From IMG/VR virus record IMGVR_UViG_3300045988_090162: a stretch of 64,000 nt of DNA; one strand, written 5' to 3'. Position numbers and translations under genes: made by a program. Numbering within the stretch: position 1 is the stretch's first letter; the number at the start of each line of letters is the position of its first letter. This document shows positions 13,313 through 34,802 of the stretch, piece after piece. Source of the stretch: a virus. Below the pieces are notes generated by a model. The model did not search any database and was not told where the DNA came from. It saw only the letters and a list, made by a program, of their open reading frames with translations.

Positions 13313-13792
13313 TTACACAATCATATACTCGTCTACAAGACCATTGGCCTTAGCGCGAGCAGGCATATAACGACCAGCCCACATGCGCTTGATAACATCA
13401 TCAGGTACACGTTCAACACCTCCGCGCTTAGCATTCTGCGGCAAAGCGATGTCAAGACCACGGTTGAAGTACACAAGGATAATCTTGTCGGCGTTCTTGC
13501 CGCAATTCTCAACGGTCTTGCGAAGCGACTTCCAAGAAATATGAGTAGCATCTGCAATAACATTAATATCATTGCAAAGATTGTCGTTAATCTGACTATA
13601 GAAACCCTTAATAACGTCACTCTCATACTTAAAGTAATCAATAGAAGGAAGAAAATCAGGGTCATTTGCCATATACTCAAAGCGAATATAATCACGAGAA
13701 ACAATTTTGGCATTAAGTTCAGCACTATGCTCATGCGCCCAAAACGACTTGCCGCAACCAGGAATTCCTGCTAGAATATAAAGATTAGCCAT
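13313..13792 (-). CDS. polynucleotide 5'-kinase-like P-loop kinase (T4 Pnk kinase-domain-like)
   Basis: N-terminal LAGIPGCGKSFWA Walker A followed by the SRD.IR motif typical of T4 Pnk/AAA_33 kinases. Confidence 0.65.
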   Translation of the reverse strand: MANLYILAGIPGCGKSFWAHEHSAELNAKIVSRDYIRFEYMANDPDFLPSIDYFKYESDVIKGFYSQINDNLCNDINVIADATHISWKSLRKTVENCGKNADKIILVYFNRGLDIALPQNAKRGGVERVPDDVIKRMWAGRYMPARAKANGLVDEYMIV

Positions 13793-14388: not shown

Positions 14389-14459
14389 AGCGGCGTAAGA
14401 GATTCTAACTCTCACCAAAGGCTTGGAAGGCCTGTATGCTAACATTACACCAACGCCGC
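14389..14459 (-). tRNA. tRNA-Gly (anticodon TCC)
   Basis: acceptor GCGGCGT/ACGCCGC, anticodon loop CTTCCAA, T-arm GAGAG-TTAGAAT-CTCTT; anticodon stem is only 4 bp. Confidence 0.6.
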
Positions 14460-14467
14460 ATATAAGG

Positions 14468-14540
14468 TGTCCACGGGTAGAATTGAACTACCGACACGCA
14501 GATTTTCAGTCTGCTGCTCTACCTACTGAGCTACATGGAC
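14468..14540 (-). tRNA. tRNA-Phe (anticodon GAA)
   Basis: acceptor GTCCATG/CGTGGAC, D-arm GCTC-AGTAGGTA-GAGC, anticodon stem GCAGA/TCTGC with loop CTGAAAA, T-arm GGTAG-TTCAATT-CTACC. Confidence 0.8.
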
Positions 14541-14544
14541 ATGC

Positions 14545-14619
14545 TGGCTTCTCTATTATGACTCGAACATAAACTAACGGAACCAAAATCCGTTGTGCTG
14601 CCAATTACACCATAGAGAA
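14545..14619 (-). tRNA. tRNA-Gln (anticodon TTG), CCA encoded
   Basis: acceptor TTCTCTA/TAGAGAA (perfect), D-arm GTGT-AATTGGCA-GCAC, anticodon stem ACGGA/TCCGT with loop TTTTGGT, T-arm TTATG-TTCGAGT-CATAA, 3' GCCA. Confidence 0.8.
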
Positions 14620-14626
14620 ATTTTCG

Positions 14627-14698
14627 TGCGCTAGTGGAGATTCGAACTCCAATCTCAAGAACGTCACCTTGCAATTTTGCCAGTTAAACTACTAACAC
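14627..14698 (-). tRNA. tRNA-like gene with atypical anticodon arm (possible pseudo-tRNA or non-canonical tRNA)
   Basis: Good acceptor (GTGTTAG/CTAGCGC with two G·U pairs), D-arm GTTT-AACTGGCA-AAAT and T-arm TGGAG-TTCGAAT-CTCCA; the anticodon region folds only as CAAGG/TCTTG around a 6-nt loop TGACGT (or a 4-bp stem with an 8-nt loop). Confidence 0.45.
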
Positions 14699-14819
14699 AC
14701 TACTCACTAGTGGCAATTATTTTAAGGATAATTGCAAAACCTTTTAGTCTAAAGCTAGCTAGGCTTTAGAAGTTGAAAATATAGGGTTAAGCTATTTCCT
14801 ATATTTTCTATATTTTCTA

Positions 14820-14925
14820 TATATCTAGTCGAATGTAAGAACCGTATTTAACCAATTAAACTACCTCGCACTTGCCGTGCGAGAGTGGGAGTCGAACCAA
14901 CATCTGCTCTATGCTCGACTTGATA
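14820..14925 (-). ncRNA. candidate Y RNA-like (YrlA-like) ncRNA with a permuted tRNA-like module
   Basis: Downstream of promoter 14931-14959. The minus strand reads 5' GTCGAGC..., then T-arm GTTGG-TTCGACT-CCCAC, then hairpin CTCGCAC-GGCAA-GTGCGAG (acceptor-like stem closed by a loop), then a D-arm-like GTAGTTTAATTGGTTAAAT, then ...CATTCGAC pairing back to the 5' end. tRNA parts are present but in YrlA-like permuted order. Confidence 0.45.
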
Positions 14926-14930
14926 ACTAT

Positions 14931-14959
14931 ATTATATAAAACTACTTGGCATTTGTCAA
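14931..14959 (-). promoter_or_regulatory. sigma70-like promoter (TTGACA-N17-TATATAAT) driving the Y-like RNA and tRNA operon
   Basis: rc: TTGACAAATGCCAAGTAGTTTTATATAAT; about 90% identical over ~45 nt to the promoter at 20320-20348. Confidence 0.6.
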
Positions 14960-14978
14960 ATTAATTTTATAATTAAAA

Positions 14979-15054
14979 TGGTGGCTCGCCTGAGTCTCGA
15001 ACTCAGAACCGTCAGATTAAAAGTCTGCTACTCTACCAATTGAGTTAACGAGCC
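14979..15054 (-). tRNA. tRNA-Lys (anticodon TTT), CCA encoded
   Basis: acceptor GGCTCGT/GCGAGCC, D-arm ACTC-AATTGGTA-GAGT, anticodon loop CTTTTAA, T-arm CTGAG-TTCGAGA-CTCAG, 3' ACCA. Confidence 0.8.
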
Positions 15055-15071
15055 ATATGCAATCTAGCACG

Positions 15072-15144
15072 CTCTGGCGGCAGGGGTCGAACCTGCGACA
15101 TCTTGATTAACGGTCAAGCGTTCTACCAGCTGAACTACACCAGA
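15072..15144 (-). tRNA. tRNA-Asn (anticodon GTT)
   Basis: acceptor TCTGGTG/CGCCAGA, D-arm GTTC-AGCTGGTA-GAAC, anticodon stem CTTGA/TCAAG with loop CCGTTAA, T-arm GCAGG-TTCGACC-CCTGC. Confidence 0.7.
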
Positions 15145-15208
15145 GTGTACTAGATTATAGGTTAATTATACAATATTTATATGCAATTGTCAAGGAAAAA
15201 GTTAGAGG

Positions 15209-15280
15209 TACGAAATGAAAGAGTCGAACTTTCGTCTTCCCGTTATAAGCAGGATGTCCTAACCGTTGTACGAATTTCGC
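15209..15280 (-). tRNA. tRNA-Ile (anticodon TAT; AUA-decoding, or CAT-like if modified)
   Basis: acceptor GCGAAAT/ATTTCGT, anticodon stem TCCTG/CGGGA with loop CTTATAA, T-arm GAAAG-TTCGACT-CTTTC; D-stem has one mismatch. Confidence 0.6.
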
Positions 15281-15301
15281 ATTACTGTAACTGCTTTTAA
15301 A

Positions 15302-15673
15302 TTATTGGTGAGACTTAAGCCACCTTTGAACATACCAAAGCTGGCCGCGCCCACCACCAATATCATCTTGACCAGCTGGATCAAATGTCCTTACATTATA
15401 ACCCTTTTCTAAGAACTTATCCTGAAACTTCTTAATAACATCTAAGTTCCTAAACGCCGCATCTTTAAGCATGGCGGGAATACCGTCAAACAGCTCATGC
15501 TCACCAAGAGTCTCTAAAGCAACATCAACCAAGTCGGCATCATACATGTCATAAAGCAGGTCAAGATATGCGTCACGGTCAGATTCACTAATCTCCATTG
15601 TATTCCTCTTCGTCATACTCGCCATCATTGCACATCCAATCATTGACGCATACCTTTTCAGGTTCATCTTCAA
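15302..15673 (-). CDS. hypothetical protein
   Basis: 123-aa ORF with the CCAAGAGA cassette upstream (15770). Confidence 0.5.
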   Translation of the reverse strand: MKMNLKRYASMIGCAMMASMTKRNTMEISESDRDAYLDLLYDMYDADLVDVALETLGEHELFDGIPAMLKDAAFRNLDVIKKFQDKFLEKGYNVRTFDPAGQDDIGGGRGQLWYVQRWLKSHQ

Positions 15674-15829
15674 TCAGATGCTTGCGGCAGATGCCTAGAT
15701 ACCAAAGGTCTGTTGACTCATAATATTTGCAATTGCCGCATATATTAGTAGCTTCAACCATTGTTTCTTCTTTCTCTTGGTTTCTTTAACTATATTATAG
15801 CATATCTTTTAACCAAAAGTCAAGAAAAA

Positions 15830-16102
15830 TTAAGTATAAAATTCGTTGAAATCATTAAGCCAATCCAAGAGAGCTAAAGATGTAAGTGGAGTCATGTCCC
15901 ATAACTGCTCAGCACAATAAATGCTAGTATGAGAAGGATTCTTTTCCATAGCATTTACAACAAGCTCATGAAAAACAGCACGGTCAACTTTTTTAAGTTC
16001 ATCGACAATCTTCTCAATATCCTTTTGCTGACTAAGATATACAATGAAATCAAGAATCATAGCAGTCATTTTATTAAGGTGCATACTACACATTTCACTC
16101 AT
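15830..16102 (-). CDS. hypothetical protein (start trimmed to an internal Met)
   Basis: ORF 15830..16207 overlaps the upstream gene; the internal MSEMCSMH start abuts the upstream stop. Confidence 0.4.
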   Translation of the reverse strand: MSEMCSMHLNKMTAMILDFIVYLSQQKDIEKIVDELKKVDRAVFHELVVNAMEKNPSHTSIYCAEQLWDMTPLTSLALLDWLNDFNEFYT

Positions 16103-16397
16103 ATTTCTGTCTCCAAAGTTCACGTGCGGCCATTCGTGCTTCACGACATTCAGGAGAAGAATCATTCTTCCCTGTTTGCTGTAAAACATACTCTTCAATA
16201 AAATCATAACTACTTATATCAGCGACATTTTTTACAAACTGAGGACAGCATGTAGGCCACCAAGCTCCAATACGGCCAATTCTATAAAAGCAAGAGCCAA
16301 ACTTCTCATGGCGTTTACCTTTTGAAGTAACATCGCCTAACCAGTGAACGCACTCACCGCATGTATGGTCAGAGTTTACATCACAAAAAGGAAACAA
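16095..16397 (-). CDS. Cys-rich small protein
   Basis: 100 aa with CxxC pairs (CGEC...CCPQ). Confidence 0.45.
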   Translation of the reverse strand: MFPFCDVNSDHTCGECVHWLGDVTSKGKRHEKFGSCFYRIGRIGAWWPTCCPQFVKNVADISSYDFIEEYVLQQTGKNDSSPECREARMAARELWRQKYE

Positions 16398-16537
16398 GAC
16401 TCGCCGATAGTATCATGGAGCTGGTCTTTGCAGACACAATGAAAGTAACCTTTCTCGCCCCAACGCTTCTTGCTATACTTATGCTGCGGACAATGGCTTA
16501 GACCTTCACATGAGATTTTATATTCATCGTTAGTCAT
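16376..16537 (-). CDS. Cys/His-rich small protein (start trimmed)
   Basis: The internal Met gives a 53-aa CxxxxC...HC..C protein abutting its neighbours. Confidence 0.35.
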   Translation of the reverse strand: MTNDEYKISCEGLSHCPQHKYSKKRWGEKGYFHCVCKDQLHDTIGESCFLFVM

Positions 16538-16724
16538 GCTTCTCCAATTTAGGATGAATTGCCCATTCGCCGCACCTATCTCCGCTTTGCGGTGAAGGAT
16601 GAACAGTATAAACATTATAATCTGTTGGGTCAATAATTACATTGGGTGGGAAACGATAGCAACTGCAATTTTTATAAAATCTGCAATTGCCGCAGATACG
16701 CTGGACCTTATGCTTGACTTCCAT
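16530..16724 (-). CDS. Cys-rich small protein (start trimmed; GGAGAG RBS)
   Basis: Internal MEVKHKVQRICGNCRFYKNCSC start with RBS GGAGAGTAAAATG, immediately upstream of the phosphoesterase. Confidence 0.4.
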   Translation of the reverse strand: MEVKHKVQRICGNCRFYKNCSCYRFPPNVIIDPTDYNVYTVHPSPQSGDRCGEWAIHPKLEKHD

Positions 16725-16725
16725 T

Positions 16726-17322
16726 TTACTCTCCAAGCTCAATCTTTTTCTGCTGGACATCGAGCCAAATATCATGAATGCTGACAGGAGTAAGATTATT
16801 CGTGTCAACGCCTACGTGATATGTCCAATCAACAAGACCCTTGGGAGCCGCGTCATGGACATGACCATACAGAATGACATTGGCGCTGTCTCCACGCATT
16901 TCCTCGGGACGCTCATGAATCATAATGAAACTGACATCGTTGTAATCAAGGCAAGACACCTTGTTTTCGATAATCCAGCCGAGCTTTTCCATTTCTGCAA
17001 TGCGCTTCTTGGTATCATGATTGCCGGGAATCACATGAATCTTGCCGTTGAGACGAGAGCCATATTTAGCTACAGTCTCAAGTGGTCCCATGAAGCAATC
17101 ACCAAGATGATAGACAGTATCATCAGGAGATACAACGGAATTCCAGTTTTTGACAATAGCTTCATTCATTTCTTTGACCGTATCAAACGGACGCGACTCT
17201 GGACAAAACTTGATAATATTCTCATGTTGAAAATGAGTATCAGAAATAACAAAAACACTCATTGAATCTCCTTTCGATTTCTTAAATATATTATAACATA
17301 ATATATAGCCAATAGTCAACAA
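16726..17322 (-). CDS. calcineurin-like metallophosphoesterase (protein/polynucleotide phosphatase-like)
   Basis: Motifs ISDTHF (GDxHG-like), GDCFMG (GDxxDRG-like), GNHD, and GHVH. Confidence 0.75.
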   Translation of the reverse strand: MLTIGYILCYNIFKKSKGDSMSVFVISDTHFQHENIIKFCPESRPFDTVKEMNEAIVKNWNSVVSPDDTVYHLGDCFMGPLETVAKYGSRLNGKIHVIPGNHDTKKRIAEMEKLGWIIENKVSCLDYNDVSFIMIHERPEEMRGDSANVILYGHVHDAAPKGLVDWTYHVGVDTNNLTPVSIHDIWLDVQQKKIELGE

Positions 17323-17358
17323 AAAAATAGGGACTCAAAAGAGTCCCTACAAAAATAT
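17322..17358. terminator. bidirectional rho-independent terminator
   Basis: AAAAAAATAGGGACTCaaaaGAGTCCCTACAAAAATA. Confidence 0.65.
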
Positions 17359-17420
17359 CAATGTGTGCGAAAAAGTTAGATTCAGACTATTTTAATTGCC
17401 CTATGAAGTAACTGAATCTT
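17347..17420. repeat. hairpin-repeat unit 1 (ATGCG...TTAGATTCAG...CTGAATCTTAA...CGCAT family)
   Basis: Outer inverted ends TGCG/CGCA enclose an inner inverted repeat TTAGATTCAG / CTGAATCTTAA. Confidence 0.5.
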
Positions 17421-17699
17421 AATCACGCACATTTGCGCCTATATAGCTCGCACACTATATAGGCGAGAAAGGGGTTTACAAATAATGGCAAGGAAAAAGT
17501 GTAAAGAGTGTAGGTGGGGGTTGCCTCTTTCTAATGAAAGCTGCTCTTATTTAAACATATAACGAAGTAACTCTTTACTAATCACTTGCCGCACAAGAGA
17601 AAGCGATACGGAAATAGGTGTTTCAGTTTGAGTAATCAGCTCAGAATGGAGATTTGAAGTATCTGAAACGTTATCACGTATCGTCTACTTTAATAAAAT

Positions 17700-17810
17700 G
17701 AATGCGGAAAAGCCTAAATCAGTGAAATGTGTACCGACACAGAGCAGGAGCCGAACCTGCAAGCGCATTTTTCCAGAATGAAGTAACTGATTTATCATCA
17801 CGCATTATAG
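17700..17810. repeat. hairpin-repeat unit 2 (covariant stem CCTAAATCAGT / ACTGATTTATCA)
   Basis: Same outer ATGCGGAAAAG ... TCACGCAT frame as the other units, with compensatory changes in the inner stem. Confidence 0.5.
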
Positions 17811-17819
17811 TAAATAAAA

Positions 17820-17905
17820 TAAATGCGGAAAAGTTAGATTCAGTGTCTAATTATTAACATACCAAAATTAATGAAGTAACTGAATCTTAATCACGCATTT
17901 AATAA
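17820..17905. repeat. hairpin-repeat unit 3
   Basis: AATGCGGAAAAGTTAGATTCAG...GAAGTAACTGAATCTTAATCACGCAT. Confidence 0.5.
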
Positions 17906-17956
17906 ACGTTGGTGCCGCATCTAGGTACCGCCCCTAGCCAGTCTAAGACAGAAGAT

Positions 17957-18322
17957 TTACAAGTGTACGATATACTGATATGTATCAAAATATCCACTGT
18001 GGCACTCAGTTATATCAGAATATAACTTTATATGGGATTTATTCGTAATTTTGTTTACTGGTATAGAATACATTAAACCAGTTGTACCATTTAAACAAAA
18101 TAATAAATCTACAGGATGGTTTGTTACATTATCATATTCTTTTCCATTAGTGCCACCACAACTTCTTAAAGATATAGTATTATCTTTTGACGTTGTACAT
18201 TTGCATTGTACAGTTTGAAAGACGCCATCTTTTTCAATAATTAAATCATACCACTGTGTATCAGACAAAGGAAGAGAGACAGTATAGCCATTAGAACCAT
18301 AATATGCAATAGCCACTGACAT
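17957..18322 (-). CDS. hypothetical protein
   Basis: 121-aa ORF. Confidence 0.5.
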   Translation of the reverse strand: MSVAIAYYGSNGYTVSLPLSDTQWYDLIIEKDGVFQTVQCKCTTSKDNTISLRSCGGTNGKEYDNVTNHPVDLLFCLNGTTGLMYSIPVNKITNKSHIKLYSDITECHSGYFDTYQYIVHL

Positions 18323-18384
18323 TCCAGCCCTACTTCTATTTTTATTATTGTCTAATAGCCTTTTCCTCCTTTATGCTTCTAGTA

Positions 18385-18482
18385 TGCCTTGTCTTGGGTT
18401 CGGGAGTCGGACCCGAATGCCTTGCGGCGCTATTTTTTGAGAATAGTGTGTATGCCAGTTCCACCAACCCAAGATAAGGCAT
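18385..18482. repeat. long inverted repeat (18-bp arms) enclosing a GC-rich hairpin
   Basis: GTATGCCTTGTCTTGGGT ... ACCCAAGATAAGGCATAC, with inner hairpin TTCGGGAGTCGGACCCGAA. Confidence 0.55.
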
Positions 18483-18494
18483 ACTAACATGCCT

Positions 18495-18947
18495 TTAATT
18501 TGTCTGTTTCTGAATCCCAAGCTGGTCAAAAAACTCGTCTGGAATAAACTTGTCATCCAAAGGCTGATAATCTTTCCAGATAATCAGAGGATACCAAGTC
18601 TTTGACCACTCGGTAAATTCAGCGAATTCATCATTATATCCAAAAGAAACAGCAAAACCAAACCAGCTTGGTTTGACATGCGGGAAAGTCTTTTTGATAA
18701 TTCCCTCGTTGTCAACAAAATCGCCGATACGACCGCAAATAGTACAAACGTTCCTATAAGCATAAGTCCATGTGCCAGCATATTTATCAAAGTAATTGAT
18801 AACAATACTCTTATCGTAAGTGTGTTTATGATTGGCTTTCTTCACTGTCTTTTTCTTTTTACGAGCGGGAGCATTGGCCGCATCGTCGGGAATATAAGCA
18901 TATTTAGTTGCCAATACTTCACCTTTATAGGAATACGAGGACATCAA
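18495..18947 (-). CDS. hypothetical protein
   Basis: 150-aa ORF with a KKKK stretch. Confidence 0.5.
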   Translation of the reverse strand: MMSSYSYKGEVLATKYAYIPDDAANAPARKKKKTVKKANHKHTYDKSIVINYFDKYAGTWTYAYRNVCTICGRIGDFVDNEGIIKKTFPHVKPSWFGFAVSFGYNDEFAEFTEWSKTWYPLIIWKDYQPLDDKFIPDEFFDQLGIQKQTN

Positions 18948-18992
18948 AGCTCCTTTTCTACTTTTGGATAAACTGAGTAGCTATCTACTCTG

Positions 18993-19064
18993 CTGGAATG
19001 GTAGGACTCGAACCTACAACATTTTGATTAACGGTTAAACGCTCTACCATTGAGCTACACTCCA
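18993..19064 (-). tRNA. tRNA, anticodon GTT (Asn-like); anticodon stem carries an A·C mismatch
   Basis: acceptor TGGAGTG/CATTCCA, D-arm GCTC-AATGGTA-GAGC, anticodon loop CCGTTAA, T-arm GTAGG-TTCGAGT-CCTAC. Confidence 0.55.
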
Positions 19065-19093
19065 GCAGGGTAGATAAGCCACACTTTGTTCTA

Positions 19094-19162
19094 TTGGAGT
19101 GACAAGACTCGAACTTGCGACACGTTGAGTTAACAACATTCTACCAACTGAATTACACTCCA
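19094..19162 (-). tRNA. tRNA-like gene (69 nt) with atypical anticodon arm (6-nt loop TTAACT)
   Basis: acceptor TGGAGTG/CACTCCA, D-arm ATTC-AGTTGGTA-GAAT and T-arm GCAAG-TTCGAGT-CTTGT are fine; the anticodon region folds only as TGTTG/CAACG around TTAACT. Confidence 0.4.
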
Positions 19163-19384
19163 ATAGAATGGATTATTTAGATAAAAGAGCGTTATGAAGA
19201 TAATCGTCAGCTTCTTCAAACGTATCAAAGCTCTTGATAATTTCAAAACGAACAACAGAGCAATCAGTGTTGACACGAATCGAATAGATTCCGCAAGTCT
19301 TTTCACGACAAATGACGAACTGCTTCATAACAAACCTCTTTCTCTCTTGGTCTATATATATTATATAATATTATAAACCAAAAG

Positions 19385-19495
19385 TCAAGAAAAAATATGC
19401 GGAAAAATTGGGGTCAGACTAACAAATGCAGCGTACCGCATTTAAAATATACCATAAAATCTTCATGAAGTAACTGAACCCTCATCACGCATAAT
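19385..19495. repeat. hairpin-repeat unit 4 (covariant stem TTGGGGTCAG / CTGAACCCTCA)
   Basis: ATGCGGAAAAATTGGGGTCAG ... GAAGTAACTGAACCCTCATCACGCAT. Confidence 0.45.
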
Positions 19496-19691: not shown

Positions 19692-20224
19692 ATGGTCAAC
19701 CTAACGGCGTACTAAGCATTACACTTCTGGGTGTTGGCAATAAGCCGCAGGGTCACTGGTTTGTTGACGGTACTGTTGACTATCCTTTTTCCCTTTCCTT
19801 CTAGAAATATTATATCAAATTATTCAACTATTTGTCAAATAATTTTTTATAGCAAAAATTGGTCGCGAGGTGTTTCTGCTGCCGAAACTTAACAGAGCTT
19901 ATGAGACTCCGTGAGATACTGACCTCCCACCCGCAATTAAAGTAGTAATTTTCACATCTGCCGAGGTTTGAAAACTACCAAAATATACCAGATTCCTCTT
20001 CCCCTAGGCGCTTCTTTTCAAGTATGCGCTGGCCCGCATTGTCTACGGCTACAGAGACGGCATATATAAAATCTTGCAAGCAAGATAATATAATCACGTG
20101 GACGGTTTCAAACTGGGAAAACCGCCAACCCTTTAATCTATAGTCCCTGCAAAAGACTATAGAAGTCGGGAGACATTTACCTTGCAGCGATAACCTCTCC
20201 CCAGGCATTGGATATAACACAATC

Positions 20225-20305
20225 GCTAGGTGCTATTCTCACCAATTAAACTAACCGCCGTTAACTCGGCCTGTCCGGGAGTCGAACCCACATCTTCACC
20301 ATCAC
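20225..20305 (-). ncRNA. candidate Y RNA-like ncRNA, paralogue of 14820..14925 (may extend 3'-ward to ~19850)
   Basis: Begins just downstream of promoter 20320-20348. The minus strand reads GATGTGGGTTCGACTCCCGG (T-arm-like), then ACAG-GCCG-AGTTAA-CGGC (hairpin), then GGTTAGTTTAATTGGTGAG (D-arm-like). Same module order and near-identical promoter/5' leader as the 14.9 kb element. Confidence 0.4.
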
Positions 20306-20319
20306 GATTTGTTAACTAT

Positions 20320-20348
20320 ATTATATAAAATTACTCGGCGTTTGTCAA
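20320..20348 (-). promoter_or_regulatory. sigma70-like promoter (TTGACA-N17-TATATAAT), paralogue of 14931-14959
   Basis: rc: TTGACAAACGCCGAGTAATTTTATATAAT. Confidence 0.6.
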
Positions 20349-20437
20349 GTAATTTTTTAACTAGGCTGGCTCTTTCTGTGCTGCCCAGAAATTTTATGAT
20401 TCAGAGTCATATGTTCTACTGTTGAACTAAGAGCCAA

Positions 20438-20675: not shown

Positions 20676-21314
20676 TTATATATACACCCAATGAAAACCA
20701 TATGCCGTCTTTTCTTTATTTTCACAAACTTGCTTAATATGCCTTGAAATTCCTTGTGTTGATTTATTTGTAGTGTAGTTATTATCAAAAAGCCAAGCGG
20801 ATGCTTCGTGCAACGATTGAAAAATCTTGTCTTTTTCTATTAAACATACACTTTTAGAATATCGTTCTTTAGAAAGAACATTAGATTGCAGTATTTCTAC
20901 ATTGCATTGTTTACATGCGTACCTAACCGTATCTGCACAACAATGAAAATGTTTTACTACTTTTATCGTATCATGTGTTTCAGTATGCATATCAGCTATT
21001 TTTTGATAATCATAAAAAGGTTTTCCGTCTCCACCTTTTGTAGCATTATATCCATTACAGCCATATGTATTTAGCTTAAAAATCCAATATTCTTCCTGTT
21101 TTGCCGCATCTTCAACGGAGCATTTTTCTAATTGCTCAACATGAAAATGCTCAATGCCATATTTATTCATAGCAGAATACAGAGGACGTTTTTCACATCT
21201 TTCTTTTCTGCTATCTGAAATATGCTCTTTAAATCTTTTGCTGATTGACTTATTAGTTTTTCCAACATATTGTTTTCCGTTAACATCGTTGGTAATTACA
21301 TAAATATAAGACAT
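20676..21314 (-). CDS. GIY-YIG homing endonuclease (free-standing)
   Basis: N-terminal SYIYVITNDVNGKQYVGKT, RFKEH and YGIEHF (GIY-YIG core) with a C-terminal DNA-binding extension. Confidence 0.75.
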   Translation of the reverse strand: MSYIYVITNDVNGKQYVGKTNKSISKRFKEHISDSRKERCEKRPLYSAMNKYGIEHFHVEQLEKCSVEDAAKQEEYWIFKLNTYGCNGYNATKGGDGKPFYDYQKIADMHTETHDTIKVVKHFHCCADTVRYACKQCNVEILQSNVLSKERYSKSVCLIEKDKIFQSLHEASAWLFDNNYTTNKSTQGISRHIKQVCENKEKTAYGFHWVYI

Positions 21315-21582
21315 TTTATCACCAACTTAAATAATAAATGGAGCCAACTGACAGTGCTGCCCTGTCTGCTTCGCTTTACAAGAGCGATGTATTACTGTTA
21401 TACTAAGCTGGCTTTACCAAAAGAAAAATGAGCCTGCAATACTCTAGAAATCTTGCAGGCTCTAACACCACTATTACAATATAATAGTTGCGCAACAAAA
21501 ATTATAACTTTTTGCCCAGAACTTTTATTTTGTAACTAAAGTTATTATACCATATTAGTATAACGTCTGTCAAGAACTTTTT

Positions 21583-25274: not shown

Positions 25275-26219
25275 TTAATTTTCAAACCAGTTACGCAACT
25301 CGATTACCGAAGGGCAAGTTCCTCGACCTTGCTCGCGGCACTCTTCCACGAACTCAGGAATTGCATCCATAAGACGAGGTTCAAATGCCAGCTTGGTCTT
25401 GATATTTTTGATAGTCTCAATATCACGTCCAGTCCAAACCTGCTGCAAAACTCCACGAGCCTTTTTCCAGTTCTTGTACCAAGGGGTCTTATATTTCACC
25501 ATGAATCCGTCTGCATCCTCGAAGACAAAGCCCTCGATGTATGCACGTGCGGACCACTTGTCAATGAAAGATTCAAACTCCTGCCAGTTAGCAATGACTT
25601 TGCTAAGAACCTTGCAATAGAATCCAAAATGTCCAGCTACATCAATAAGGGTATAGTACCCCGCATGGCTATAGTTGAAATCATTGTACACCAAGTCCAA
25701 AAGCACGAGGTGAGGATGCGAATACTCAACGATATGCGGGTCATGGATTGGGTCAATACACTCGAAGACAGCAGTGCAGTCATTCTTGCGCAGATATTCT
25801 GCGAATTCCTCCTGCTGTGCAGTGGTCAACGTCTTGTCAAGAACGTCACGGATATATCCTGCGAAATCTCCCTCATTCGTGCTCTTGGATGCGATGAACA
25901 GCTTACCGTCCTCGGTCGGGTCGGCAGAAATCATCGCAAGAAATCCGTTAGACTTGACATATGCGCACACAGGAAACACAAGGTTCTCGCGTAGGCTATC
26001 CATTTCAGTCTCAGGACGCTCTCCGATGTTGAAGAACTTGTTGTACGAACGTGCAACAACCTTATTATCTTTCACGAAAAGTCCGCGCGCCTTTACATTG
26101 ATGGAGTCCCATGCTTGGTTGAAAAAGCACTTGTTGGAGAAATTAAAAGACGAGATTCCATTTGCAAGATGCTTCTCGCGCACAAACGAGCTATTACGCA
26201 GCATATCGATTTCGTTCAT
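25275..26219 (-). CDS. RNA ligase, Rnl1/Trl1-like (KxNG nucleotidyltransferase)
   Basis: Start trimmed to MNEIDML (cassette promoter and CCAAGAGAGAGG leader at 26225-26290); motif I AYVKSNGFLAMIS resembles the Trl1/Rnl1 KANG lysine motif. Confidence 0.55.
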   Translation of the reverse strand: MNEIDMLRNSSFVREKHLANGISSFNFSNKCFFNQAWDSINVKARGLFVKDNKVVARSYNKFFNIGERPETEMDSLRENLVFPVCAYVKSNGFLAMISADPTEDGKLFIASKSTNEGDFAGYIRDVLDKTLTTAQQEEFAEYLRKNDCTAVFECIDPIHDPHIVEYSHPHLVLLDLVYNDFNYSHAGYYTLIDVAGHFGFYCKVLSKVIANWQEFESFIDKWSARAYIEGFVFEDADGFMVKYKTPWYKNWKKARGVLQQVWTGRDIETIKNIKTKLAFEPRLMDAIPEFVEECREQGRGTCPSVIELRNWFEN

Positions 26220-26290
26220 TTGTCTTCCTCTCTCTTGGTTTAATAATATTATATCATATATATAACTGTGCGGCAAATATTTTTTTCTAC

Positions 26291-26320
26291 AAAAAAAGGG
26301 AGAGGAACTAGTCCTCTCCC
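26291..26320 (-). terminator. rho-independent terminator
   Basis: minus strand GGGAGAGGACTAGTTCCTCTCCCTTTTTTTG. Confidence 0.65.
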
Positions 26321-26475
26321 TTAGTAGCATTTTCTTCAAATTCCATGCGCTCTAACTTTTCCTTACGTTTTGCTTTATAAGTATCGTCTTTGCGCTGACG
26401 AATTAGCTTTGCTTTGTGGGAAAACTTTTCAAAAGTATCATCATCGCTATACTCAAGTTCGTCCCAGTCACGAAT
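26308..26475 (-). CDS. small hypothetical protein (GTG start)
   Basis: AAAGGAtttattGTG start; acidic then basic tail. Confidence 0.3.
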   Translation of the reverse strand: MRDWDELEYSDDDTFEKFSHKAKLIRQRKDDTYKAKRKEKLERMEFEENATKGED

Positions 26476-33869: not shown

Positions 33870-34802
33870 ATGTCTCATTTCAATAAGTATGTGCATCTTG
33901 AGCGCTCGACTCGTGCAGAAGTTCAGAACTTTATCGGTCGTGACACAATTTTGCAGCCGAAGCTGGATGGTACGAATAGTTCTATCTGGGTAAACGATAA
34001 TGGAAATATTACTTGCGGTAGCCGTACTCGTGAGATTTCTATCGAGAAGGATAACGCTGGTTTCGCTGATTATATCACCAACACTGACGATACTGAGGTT
34101 AAGGCACTAAAGAATTGGTTGCTTGACCATCCTAATTATATCATTTACGGCGAGTGGCTTGGCGGTGTTGATGGCCGCAAGTTCACTGGTACTATCAAGA
34201 CTTATCTTGAAGGCGGATTCTTCATCTTTGATATTCTCAATACTAAGGATGGTGAGTATGTTGATTATGATGTATGGTGTCCAGTAGTTAGTAAGTTCTA
34301 TCATCGTTGCGTTCCTGTCATTTGCCGCATTAGCAACATGACTTGGGACGATGTGAACAAGCACGTTGACGAGTGTACTTACAATCTTCCAAAGGGGACT
34401 ATCGGTGAGGGCATCGTAATCAAGGCTTACCCTTGCGTGCGCGACCCATGGGGTAATGTTCAGATTGCCAAGATTGTTCGTGACGAGTGGCATCATTACA
34501 AGTCTAAGAAGAAGACTGTCTACACGGGCAATGACTCTTTGGAGAAGGAGTTTGTAGAGAAGTATTGCACTGAGGCTTTTGTCGAGAAGGAAGTCAATAA
34601 AGTTCTTATCGCTCTTGATATGGAGAAAATTGATTGCAAGAACGACAAGTTCTTCGGCATGGCTATCAATAAGGTTCTTGACGAACTTATGGAAGAGAAC
34701 TTCTGGGATTTCTTCAAGAAGAAGAAAGCTGCTTCTGTCAAACTGGCCGCAATCAAGGGTCTTACTCAAGCACGAGTACGCGAGTACATTCTTAACAACT
34801 AA
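33870..34802 (+). CDS. RNA ligase 2-like (Rnl2 family) nucleotidyltransferase
   Basis: FNKYVHLER...(22 aa)...KLDGTN (KxDG motif I) in the same arrangement as the T4 Rnl2 N-terminus (FKKYSSLEN...KIHGTN). Confidence 0.6.
   Translation: MSHFNKYVHLERSTRAEVQNFIGRDTILQPKLDGTNSSIWVNDNGNITCGSRTREISIEKDNAGFADYITNTDDTEVKALKNWLLDHPNYIIYGEWLGGVDGRKFTGTIKTYLEGGFFIFDILNTKDGEYVDYDVWCPVVSKFYHRCVPVICRISNMTWDDVNKHVDECTYNLPKGTIGEGIVIKAYPCVRDPWGNVQIAKIVRDEWHHYKSKKKTVYTGNDSLEKEFVEKYCTEAFVEKEVNKVLIALDMEKIDCKNDKFFGMAINKVLDELMEENFWDFFKKKKAASVKLAAIKGLTQARVREYILNN

Follow-up and report, generated by a model that had tools for sequence, protein, structure and literature searches.

Two tRNA-like genes in a phage tRNA region

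We analyzed a 64,000-nucleotide (nt) stretch of viral DNA (IMG/VR record IMGVR_UViG_3300045988_090162; hereafter the window), in which two genes combine the body of a transfer RNA (tRNA) with an anticodon arm of irregular size. The source is an uncultured human-gut phage of ~140 kilobases (kb), and the two genes, which we call tlA and tlB, sit within its tRNA clusters:

14627..14698, minus strand: tlA, a 72-nt tRNA-like gene; 37.6 bits in the Rfam tRNA model (RF00005)
19094..19162, minus strand: tlB, a 69-nt tRNA-like gene, derived from tRNA-Asn; 44.9 bits in RF00005

An earlier interpretation of the window (the sequence-only reading) had proposed both genes, with good acceptor, D and T arms and with anticodon regions that pair only around 6-nt or 8-nt loops, while allowing that its hand-made fold could be wrong. 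The coordinates held up, and both genes scored above the RF00005 gathering score of 29 bits, as the two lowest bar one of the 12 above-threshold matches in the window. In both RF00005 alignments a 6-nt insert stands where the anticodon loop belongs. ARAGORN called 10 tRNAs in the window; it labelled 14626-14698 as 'tRNA-???' with a 4-base anticodon, gacg, that is, an 8-nt loop, and made no call at 19094-19162. The tlB orthologue of one relative was called 'tRNA-???(aa)' with a 6-nt loop. The software thus gave neither gene the standard 7-nt-loop fold that the sequence-only reading had named as the result that would contradict it.

The bodies of both genes could be read directly from the sequence, and their pairing is kept across orthologues. 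The acceptor stem of tlA has 7 base pairs (bp); its D arm pairs GUUU with AAAU around the loop AACUGGCA, its T arm is UGGAG-UUCGAAU-CUCCA, the discriminator is A and CCA is not encoded. In tlB, the acceptor stem is UGGAGUG/CACUCCA, the D arm AUUC-AGUUGGUA-GAAU, the T arm GCAAG-UUCGAGU-CUUGU and the discriminator again A. Both therefore have the tRNA body of a 7-bp acceptor, a D arm with G18G19, a 5-bp T stem and a UUCRA loop, but neither has the canonical combination of a 5-bp stem (27-31:39-43) with a 7-nt loop, U33 and a purine at 37.

Single-sequence minimum-free-energy folding was uninformative because even good tRNAs gave no cloverleaf, and we replaced it with hairpin enumeration, comparative pair counts and RNAalifold. 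When every possible hairpin of the anticodon region was enumerated, tlA could form CAAG/CUUG around the 8-nt loop GUGACGUU or CAAGG/UCUUG around the 6-nt loop UGACGU, and tlB could form UGUU/AACG around the 8-nt loop GUUAACUC or (U)GUUG/CAAC(G) around the 6-nt loop UUAACU. The tlB arm has in effect shrunk to GUUG-UUAACU-CAAC. Loops of 7 nt were possible only on 3-bp, off-register stems, and none on a stem of at least 4 bp. Forcing tlA into the canonical 27-31:39-43 register left one Watson-Crick and one G.U pair and was rejected. RNAalifold, run independently on the orthologue alignments of each gene, returned cloverleaves with 6-nt loops, so the hand-made fold was right. As modelled, neither anticodon arm can present a normal anticodon.

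Related loci were gathered with a phosphoesterase encoded between the two genes:

16726..17322, minus strand: calcineurin-like metallophosphoesterase, the query for related loci

This search gave 23 IMG/VR loci and 17 human-gut metagenome loci on contigs of ~140 kb, with phosphoesterase proteins 84-99% identical to the query; orthologue contigs were drawn from IMG/VR and ENA. We found tlA in 15 contigs (7 distinct sequences) and tlB in 32 contigs (14 distinct sequences, zero indels). The genes are thus not assembly artefacts, and the observation is real rather than a product of chance. Because relatives keep both genes with their structure preserved, they are probably working look-alikes of tRNAs rather than junk or mis-folded sequence. 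Cultured phages contained no DNA-level relative of the region, and none for tlA even at low stringency; a search of 185,579 species-representative genomes for a bacterial or host source of either gene gave 0 matches.

tlB, a shortened relative of tRNA-Asn

The tlB locus contains the following features:

19088..19168, minus strand: tlB with its leader and trailer; 13-bp acceptor helix, UUCUAUUGGAGUG / CACUCCAAUAGAA; z = -4.1 for the 81-nt fold
18993..19064, minus strand: tRNA-Asn(GUU) 'Asn2', a tandem paralogue 29 nt downstream of tlB; loop CCGUUAA (C33)
19173..19328, minus strand: open reading frame (ORF) of 51 amino acids (aa), with its stop codon 10 nt upstream of tlB
19360..19388, minus strand: predicted sigma-70-type promoter, 11/12 consensus positions, by consensus match alone

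The nearest annotated relatives of tlB among 50,697 phage records are tRNA-Asn genes, at no more than 84% identity over 58-62 nt. Aligned to the tRNA-Asn genes of phages and of the window, tlB shows a gap of 4 nt within the 5' anticodon-arm strand and is otherwise collinear with them; the collinear part takes in the variable loop (G/A)UGUC as well as the T arm. By this alignment tlB is a tRNA-Asn duplicate that has lost 4 nt from the 5' side of its anticodon arm, and a tRNA-Asn with such a deletion should be no decoder of any kind. The neighbouring Asn2 has its 5' acceptor strand in common with tlB, and in one relative (L006) the two genes are fused. The pairing of the tlB leader with its trailer is not special, since similar extensions flank the solo tRNAs Asn1, Asn2 and Leu; those of Asn2 pair at 12/13 positions.

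As a near-neutral reference for the diversity of tlB we used the third codon positions of the adjacent 51-aa ORF. Nucleotide diversities were as follows:

Third codon positions of the 51-aa ORF: 0.260
First codon positions of the 51-aa ORF: 0.082
Second codon positions of the 51-aa ORF: 0.048
Spacer between tlB and Asn2: 0.119
Asn2 outside the anticodon arm: 0.070
Whole tlB gene: 0.063
D arm of tlB: 0.009
tlB anticodon mini-arm: 0.062

The T stem of tlB also covaries, with a change from G-C to A-U for which the G.U intermediate was observed. The two genes occurred together in 21 contigs; 11 contigs had tlB without an intact Asn2, 6 had neither, and none had Asn2 alone. Asn2 was lost or inactivated in six ways that left tlB intact: three deletions, the fusion, a 466-nt insertion carrying an endonuclease ORF, and a 12-nt deletion in the anticodon loop. 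On balance, these patterns suggest that tlB behaves as a selected RNA in which the tRNA body counts for more than the remaining hairpin, and which is nonetheless an accessory gene.

The promoter at 19360..19388 heads a unit of the 51-aa ORF, tlB, Asn2 and downstream genes. This arrangement raises the possibility that tlB is RNA punctuation, a tRNA-shaped RNase P, RNase Z or RNase III signal that would separate or stabilise the 51-aa ORF mRNA and was kept after the ability to decode was lost. A place 10 nt past the ORF stop, inside a mixed mRNA/tRNA unit, would suit such a signal, as would the retention of tlB upon deletion of Asn2 and a pattern of constraint centred on the acceptor, D and T arms, which are the parts that RNase P and RNase Z recognise. 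Solo tRNAs between ORFs likewise have extended leader-trailer stems, which tight-array tRNAs do not. We nevertheless regard this role as quite improbable: since 6 contigs miss the tlB-Asn2 cassette and have otherwise intact ORFs, tlB is not required for the 51-aa ORF operon, and punctuation leaves tlA unexplained.

Several observations concern the tRNA-Asn genes and their solo neighbours in their own right. The A.C mismatch that the sequence-only reading noted in the anticodon stem of Asn2 is real, as seen in the Rfam alignment, and is private to the window genome; in its closest relatives the stem reads UUUGA/UCAAA and the position is a G-C pair. Both tRNA-Asn genes of the window (15072-15144 and 18993-19064, minus strand) have C33 in the loop CCGUUAA and not the near-universal U33. 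Across the clade, Asn genes comprise 14 copies of C33 alleles and 20 of U33 alleles, and some Leu(CAA), Met and Ile(UAU) genes sporadically carry C33. Inverted repeats flank the solo tRNAs between ORFs and add 10-13 bp to the acceptor helix (15059-15157, 18980-19077 and 18381-18495, minus strand); they surround Asn1, Asn2, Leu-CAA and, in relatives, a 92-nt Ile-UAU, and are not found around tRNAs in tight arrays.

The 466-nt insert splits tRNA-Asn just past the anticodon (CUGUU|) in L034 (7794-8331) and L041 (8150-8687). Its ORF belongs to the PD-(D/E)XK_5 family, which we take to be the family of the tRNA-intron homing endonuclease I-Ssp6803I, and is 33% identical to the PD-(D/E)XK ORF near tRNA-Leu in the window. 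Because the insert is almost all ORF, a group I ribozyme core is unlikely; the insert also seems too short to contain one. The 12-nt deletion at the Asn2 locus of L045 removes sequence from the same anticodon loop that is interrupted in L034 and L041.

tlA, a gene with a slipped anticodon stem

In the window tlA is part of a compact module:

14931..14959, minus strand: predicted sigma-70-type promoter, 12/12 consensus positions, at the head of the tlA module
14818..14926, minus strand: Y-RNA-like element #1; Rfam YrlA 21.8 bits, far below the gathering score of 69
14548-14619, minus strand: tRNA-Gln(UUG), canonical, immediately downstream of tlA
14468-14540, minus strand: tRNA-Phe(GAA), canonical
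14389-14459, minus strand: tRNA-Gly(UCC), canonical

The order of this module (Y-like RNA, hairpins, tlA, tRNA-Gln(UUG), tRNA-Phe, tRNA-Gly) is conserved, and the three tRNAs form an array with 5-8 nt spacing. Wherever it occurs, tlA lies 6-7 nt upstream of the tRNA-Gln(UUG)-tRNA-Phe pair, and Y-RNA-like element #1 lies ~120 nt (end to start) upstream of it in 15/15 tlA-bearing contigs. Between the promoter of Y-like element #1 and tlA there is no further predicted promoter or terminator.

The first 25 nt of tlA are identical to those of a tRNA-His(GUG) from an unrelated IMG/VR contig. When its acceptor-stem and D-arm pattern was searched in IMG/VR, only tlA copies and two tRNA-His(GUG) genes matched; the same body had no match in bacterial genomes. 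We rejected the D-arm motif alone as a marker of tRNA-His ancestry, as it is generic in phage tRNAs (Trp, Thr, Gln). By the combined pattern, tlA has a tRNA-His-type 5' half. In an ungapped comparison with tRNA-His(GUG) the loop UUGUGGU has become GUGACGU, and through five substitutions in the stem the helix now pairs with its register shifted by one position (28-32 with 39-43). This slip leaves a 2-nt hinge (26-27) and either a 6-nt loop closed by G32.U39 or an 8-nt loop. The 26-48 region keeps 22 nt and the gene its normal total length, with 27:43 unpaired.

Pairing in tlA is well preserved. Across the 7 distinct sequences, 100% of 140 pair cells were standard, compared with 94.3% in column shuffles, and both partners had changed in 4 pairs, one of which, 29:42 (A-U to G-C), belongs to the slipped anticodon stem. 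At the same time the gene evolves rapidly, with a diversity of 0.071 (0.125 in its 3' third) against 0.009 for the adjacent tRNA-Gln (~8x) and 0.040 for the flanking non-coding hairpins. The equivalent of position 37 is G, A or U and that of position 38 is U or C, whereas in the bona fide tRNA orthologue groups of the same contigs anticodon loops are essentially invariant. The discriminator has changed from A to G in 3 contigs. Such fast, structure-preserving change is unlike that of a standard isoacceptor.

Non-decoding tRNA mimics as the favored reading

The reading we favor, at a probability of roughly 40% for the whole package, is that tlA and tlB are functional non-decoding tRNA mimics, most plausibly decoys or sponges for tRNA-binding factors; our confidence in the decoy step alone is lower than that in the package. 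Both genes keep the parts that processing enzymes and shape-readers use, namely the acceptor, the D arm with G18G19 and the T arm with UUCGA. Each would be transcribed alongside genuine tRNAs from a strong early promoter, excised by RNase P and RNase Z and then given a CCA end, and the resulting RNAs would act by their tRNA shape, without decoding or charging. The most plausible role would be that of a decoy or sponge for a tRNA-binding factor, for example a host tRNA-targeting nuclease. Such a role would suit this phage, with its early region given over to tRNA supply and RNA repair. Among the interpretations listed by the sequence-only reading, a tRNA-like RNA or decoy agrees best with the conserved structure, the purifying selection on tlB and the odd arms, while the frameshift suppressor that it also listed is disfavored.

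Members of the G34-U35 (queuosine) family of tRNAs are recognised by colicin E5-type anticodon nucleases and by tRNA-guanine transglycosylase. Both mimics descend from this family by their alignments, tlA from His and tlB from Asn, and in both the ancestral G34-U35 falls at the stem-loop junction under one of two possible alignments. A shared origin of this kind would suit a decoy aimed at an enzyme specific to the queuosine family, a speculation that we formed post hoc.

A number of observations weigh against the favored reading. Both genes can be missing: tlA is an accessory gene, absent from about 25 of the 40 related contigs, and the 6 contigs without the tlB-Asn2 cassette show a clean 199-nt absence. 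The relatives are close and therefore offer few independent substitutions. In the 4-bp mini-stem of tlB the only changes are disruptive and uncompensated (3 cells), and 3 variants have a U.C mismatch at 3:70, from which it follows that part of the molecule is loosely constrained. In tlA, 6/7 of the 5' acceptor bases are G or U, so that a transition on the opposite strand never breaks a pair. The apparently compensatory T-arm changes may be block replacements through recombination between tRNA genes, which is frequent here, as chimeric genes show. A search for a donor of the variant T arms of tlA gave one similar T arm, in an unrelated tRNA-Arg(ACG).

The remaining points on this side belong to tlA and suit an odd but working Val-type decoder. 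U33-G34-A35-C36 is invariant in 7/7 variants, A73 is present in most, and GUU and GUC together make up 56% of the Val codons of the phage; we take A35, C36 and A73 to be identity elements of the Escherichia coli valyl-tRNA synthetase. According to this explanation, tlA would be an aminoacylated GAC (Val-type) tRNA with an 8-nt loop that reads GUC/GUU triplets, perhaps with some +1 slippage, and a host anticodon nuclease would cut it poorly on account of its odd loop. The canonical total length, with a 26-48 region as long as in class I tRNAs, and the place of tlA in one array with genuine tRNAs agree with this, and nuclease-escaping phage tRNAs with altered anticodon loops are documented (PMC10264068, PMC11464382, PMC11555353). 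Those resistant tRNAs, however, retain 7-nt loops. The anticodon stem of tlA has 4 Watson-Crick pairs only and cannot pair 27:43, position 37 admits a pyrimidine, position 38 varies, the discriminator has changed in 3 contigs, and the gene evolves about eight times faster than the adjacent tRNA-Gln. The explanation is also inapplicable to tlB. We consider it doubtful, while placing it first among the alternatives, followed in order by relics of island turnover, partners of Ro60, punctuation and a frameshift suppressor.

The 8-nt loop and 4-base anticodon reported by ARAGORN would also allow tlA to be a dedicated +1 frameshift suppressor, with the anticodon GACG reading CGUC where a phage gene is programmed for recoding. 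SufB2 and SufJ likewise have 8-nt loops (PMC4238358; bioRxiv 10.1101/2020.12.31.424971). We find this highly improbable. Orthologues of tlA have G, A or U as the fourth base and thus share no one quadruplet; this base is followed by UU, CU or UC, with purine 37 missing; and it is slippage of a 4-bp stem, not insertion into a normal arm, that produces the 8-nt loop. The gene occurs in only 15 of ~40 otherwise near-identical genomes, always linked to the Gln-Phe cassette and never to a protein-coding gene, and 140 in-frame GUC codons in the long ORFs of the window would be at risk.

The view of tlA and tlB as maintained mimics has also to be weighed against decay. Both could be relics, inactivated by rapid turnover of the tRNA island, with damage possibly inflicted by homing endonucleases at anticodon-loop DNA, and their persistence could be owed to the youth of the clade or to recombination among paralogues that homogenises tlA and tlB. 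The islands are indeed in flux, as seen from chimeric tRNAs and the tlB/Asn2 fusion in L006, the endonuclease insert after the Asn2 anticodon in L034 and L041, the anticodon-loop deletion in L045 and the poorly paired 'tRNA-???(gata)' in L016, L017 and L042; both genes are dispensable, and the uncompensated changes in the tlB mini-stem and at 3:70 are of the kind that decay would leave. A tRNA pseudogene, on the other hand, should change at the neutral rate and break its stems, and neither gene does so, as judged within a shallow clade with possible recombination. The diversity of tlB is a quarter of the synonymous value and equal to that of the neighbouring functional tRNA, with a near-invariant D arm, and tlB outlasted six classes of Asn2 loss without an indel. 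All stem substitutions in tlA keep pairing, those of the slipped stem included, and phage genomes are strongly pressed to delete junk. We therefore hold decay to be unlikely.

Y-RNA-like elements and Ro60

Besides element #1, the region holds a second Y-RNA-like element, and the phage encodes a candidate protein partner:

~20100-20330, minus strand: Y-RNA-like element #2; no Rfam YrlA match
36779..38209, plus strand: TROVE-domain (Ro60/Rsr-like) protein, Pfam PF05731, E = 7e-14

The TROVE protein resembles the TROVE-domain proteins 9l5y and 9kop of the PDB (E = 3e-21). The layout of Y-like element #1 (T arm, closed acceptor-like hairpin, D arm and terminal stem) is that of a circularly permuted tRNA-like domain, and compensatory changes in its closed hairpin are visible across relatives. 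Both elements are permuted tRNA-like domains behind 12/12 consensus promoters. A YrlA match at 19011-19139 (41.4 bits, gathering score 69) was rejected as a Y RNA, as it spans the T arm of tlB and the D arm of Asn2; tandem tRNAs are known to give such false YrlA matches (Chen et al., 2014; PMC4201824). In the Rfam scan neither tlA nor tlB had a YrlA (RF02553) match of its own.

Known bacterial and phage Y RNAs (YrlA, RF02553; Yrn1), the partners of Ro60/Rsr, are, like the proposed mimics, non-decoding copies of the acceptor, D and T arms that tRNA enzymes recognise, and they are encoded by genomes that carry Ro60/TROVE, as this phage does. Unlike them, tlA and tlB keep the normal tRNA order and are not permuted as YrlA is, have no recognisable Ro-binding helix, are tRNA-sized and are located in tRNA arrays. 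We considered whether the two genes could be additional Y-type RNAs that act as partners of the phage Ro60, with tlB having a topology like that of Deinococcus Yrn1. In the published model of Yrn1, a 5-bp 'anticodon' stem closes a loop of 6 nt (Chen et al., 2014; PMC4201824), and tlB similarly combines a long terminal helix (13 bp) with a D arm, a T arm and an 'anticodon arm' whose loop has 6 nt. The phage has a TROVE protein and two YrlA-like elements, and tlA always lies in the promoter-headed module of element #1. The terminal helix of tlB is, however, a perfect duplex, with no bulged or internal-loop helix like the Ro-binding stem of the YrlA model, and the genuine tRNAs Asn1, Asn2 and Leu have similar leader-trailer extensions. 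With the YrlA match at tlB being a tandem-tRNA false positive, and the TROVE gene lying 17-22 kb from tlA and tlB, such a partnership is improbable.

The sequence-only reading had seen the same TTAACT hexaloop in tlB and in the hairpin of Y-like element #2 at 20.2 kb. This does not hold, because the two were read on opposite strands: the RNA loops are UUAACU in tlB and AGUUAA in the element. They are complementary and not identical, with the palindrome GUUAAC alone in common. A kissing interaction between the two loops, although perfectly complementary, was rejected as unsupported by co-variation or co-occurrence. The Y-like loop is invariant, the two loop changes of tlB are transitions that keep a wobble pair about half the time by chance, and many contigs hold tlB or Y-like element #2 without the other.

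Comparison with other irregular tRNAs

We compared tlA and tlB with several groups of unusual tRNAs and small RNAs. The suppressors SufB2, SufJ and sufD resemble tlA in that the latter can be drawn with an 8-nt loop, a 4-base 'anticodon' and a tRNA-like body. They differ in carrying one inserted base in a normal 5-bp arm and in usually keeping purine 37, whereas in tlA the stem is slipped and counts 4 bp, or else 5 bp around a 6-nt loop, the fourth base varies and the 3' side carries pyrimidines.

Phage tRNA genes are understood in part as a counter-defence against bacterial immunity that cleaves tRNAs. To our knowledge, the documented counter-defence phage tRNAs all decode and carry subtle loop changes. 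Examples are mycobacteriophage tRNAs (PMC10264068), the T5 tRNA-Lys that acts against PARIS (PMC11464382) and the T5 tRNA-Tyr that acts against the retron PtuAB (PMC11555353). Like tlA and tlB, they have anticodon arms that depart from those of the host in phages that face tRNA cleavage, and an RNA-repair toolkit is present here too; unlike them, tlA and tlB have loops of abnormal size, in place of a 7-nt loop with normal decoding, and tlB cannot decode by its structure. Neither gene has the features of a nuclease-resistant replacement tRNA, a description that the two C33 tRNA-Asn genes of the window fit better.

Phage T4 produces RNAC and RNAD, small RNAs from its tRNA region whose function is still unknown (PMC3014915). 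They share this type of origin with tlA and tlB and have no sequence relationship to them; their expression is documented. Irregular tRNAs from metagenomes and the tRNA-Other of Bacillus cereus are in some cases found in polycistrons with normal tRNAs and in some cases proposed to be regulatory non-coding RNAs (PMC5389517). The same report describes phage tRNA-His species of (8/4) geometry that lack G-1 and have A73 or U73 (PMC5389517). tlA resembles the latter only in missing the G at -1 and in its usual A73, and its own His relatives (L025, L169) apparently have C73. The irregular tRNAs of that report have 8/4 or 9/3 geometry with normal anticodon loops, unlike the 7/5 geometry and abnormal anticodon arms of tlA and tlB. 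Our search of the literature returned nothing specific on natural phage tRNAs with 6- or 8-nt loops or on anticodon-less phage tRNA-likes; the broad kind to which tlA and tlB belong (non-canonical tRNAs and tRNA mimics in phages) is known, and this variant has not been described before.

Similar genes in other phages

Sampling IMG/VR phage contigs by a common D-arm motif gave 68 distinct cloverleaf-compatible sequences. The 26-48 region was shortened in 12/68, and in 6/68 (~9%) the anticodon arm was clearly truncated or absent, at 8-18 nt compared with 22-23. Truncated-arm tRNA-likes on unrelated contigs are 58-68 nt long, score 38-49 bits in the Rfam tRNA model and lie inside tRNA clusters. 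The arm is either missing or a mini-hairpin such as GCC-GCAA-GGC or UCCU-AACA-AGGA. They are found at the following places:

L083, 1013-1070
L105, 10447-10504 and 11557-11617
L054
L160, 5782-5848
L167, 2955-3020
L108, 8928-8995
L161, 8908-8971

From this motif-anchored sample, anticodon-disabled tRNA-likes appear to be recurrent in phages. A broader proposal, which we hold to be decidedly unlikely, is that they form a widespread phage class of anticodon-disabled tRNA mimics made from real tRNAs and maintained by selection for countering tRNA-directed defences of the host or for feeding a Ro60/RNA-repair particle. Its members would arise when an anticodon arm loses a few nucleotides or slips out of register, and would then be processed like tRNAs.

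Conserved non-decoding tRNA-shaped genes would add a tactic of mimicry or decoy, tied to the Ro60/Y-RNA and RNA-repair modules of phages. Standard tRNA finders miss such genes or flag them as '???', and censuses of phage tRNAs may therefore overlook a whole category. Charging and use of tlA would instead make it one of the rare natural tRNAs whose anticodon loop is not 7 nt, with a bearing on reading-frame maintenance and on the engineering of quadruplet codons.

Other genes and RNAs of the region

The tRNA genes of the window lie on the minus strand from ~14.4 to 21.4 kb, among small early-type ORFs, homing-endonuclease-like genes and RNA-repair genes:

13313..13792, minus strand: AAA_33 P-loop kinase, a domain type found in polynucleotide kinases; Pfam PF13671, E = 3e-13
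17957-18322, minus strand: PD-(D/E)XK homing-endonuclease-like gene adjoining tRNA-Leu
20676-21314: GIY-YIG homing-endonuclease-like gene
25275..26339, minus strand: T4 Rnl1-type RNA ligase; Pfam PF09511, E = 3e-41
33870..34802, plus strand: second RNA ligase (Pfam RNA_ligase family); PF09414, E = 3e-17

The phage thus combines many spare tRNAs with 2 RNA ligases, a kinase, a phosphoesterase, Ro60 and two Y-like RNAs. A set of ligase, kinase, phosphoesterase and TROVE protein has been read as a toolkit against RNase effectors, or for phage RNA repair (PMC7824862). The phage DNA polymerase III alpha is 38% identical to its counterparts in SPbeta-like Bacillus phages, which suggests, without proving, a Firmicute host.

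Two further tRNA-like genes of the window, at 20366-20436 and 21342-21412 (minus strand), were missed by ARAGORN and score 46.2 and 42.2 bits in Rfam. They form perfect cloverleaves with 7-nt anticodon loops (CUG = Gln and UGU = Thr, respectively) and have in common a non-canonical elbow, with the D loop AACAGUA (no GG) and the T loop GGCAGCA (no UUCRA). The CUG gene is 100% identical in 11 related loci and the UGU gene in 4; other relatives have canonical tRNA-Gln(CUG) and tRNA-Thr(UGU) in the same upstream region.

A repeat element of ~80-110 nt occurs in 4-5 copies between genes of the tRNA region (17351-17429, 17688-17804, 17809-17897 and 19383-19491, and also 17560-17585 and 17654-17680). 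The two ends of the element (…AUGCGGAAAAGUUAGAUUCAG … AUGAAGUAACUGAAUCUUAAUCACGCA on the plus strand) are conserved and able to pair with one another, and Rfam gave no match to it except a chance-level L20-leader.

Related loci contain further irregular tRNA genes. In L006 (12441-12526), L021 and L022, an 86-nt 'tRNA-Val(tac)' has a class-II, Leu-like body with a long variable arm and the loop UGUACAC (G33). The 'tRNA-???(gata)' of L016, L017 and L042 (12398-12473) is a poorly paired Ile-like gene with an 8-nt loop. The 92-nt tRNA-Ile(UAU), with its long variable arm, occurs in many loci, and in L005 a chimeric Ile(GAU) gene is the same as tRNA-Asn1 throughout its 5' half. On unrelated IMG/VR phage contigs, a Pistol ribozyme (L161, 7094-7155) and a RAGATH-27 RNA (L097, 6492-6575) were found beside tRNA clusters.

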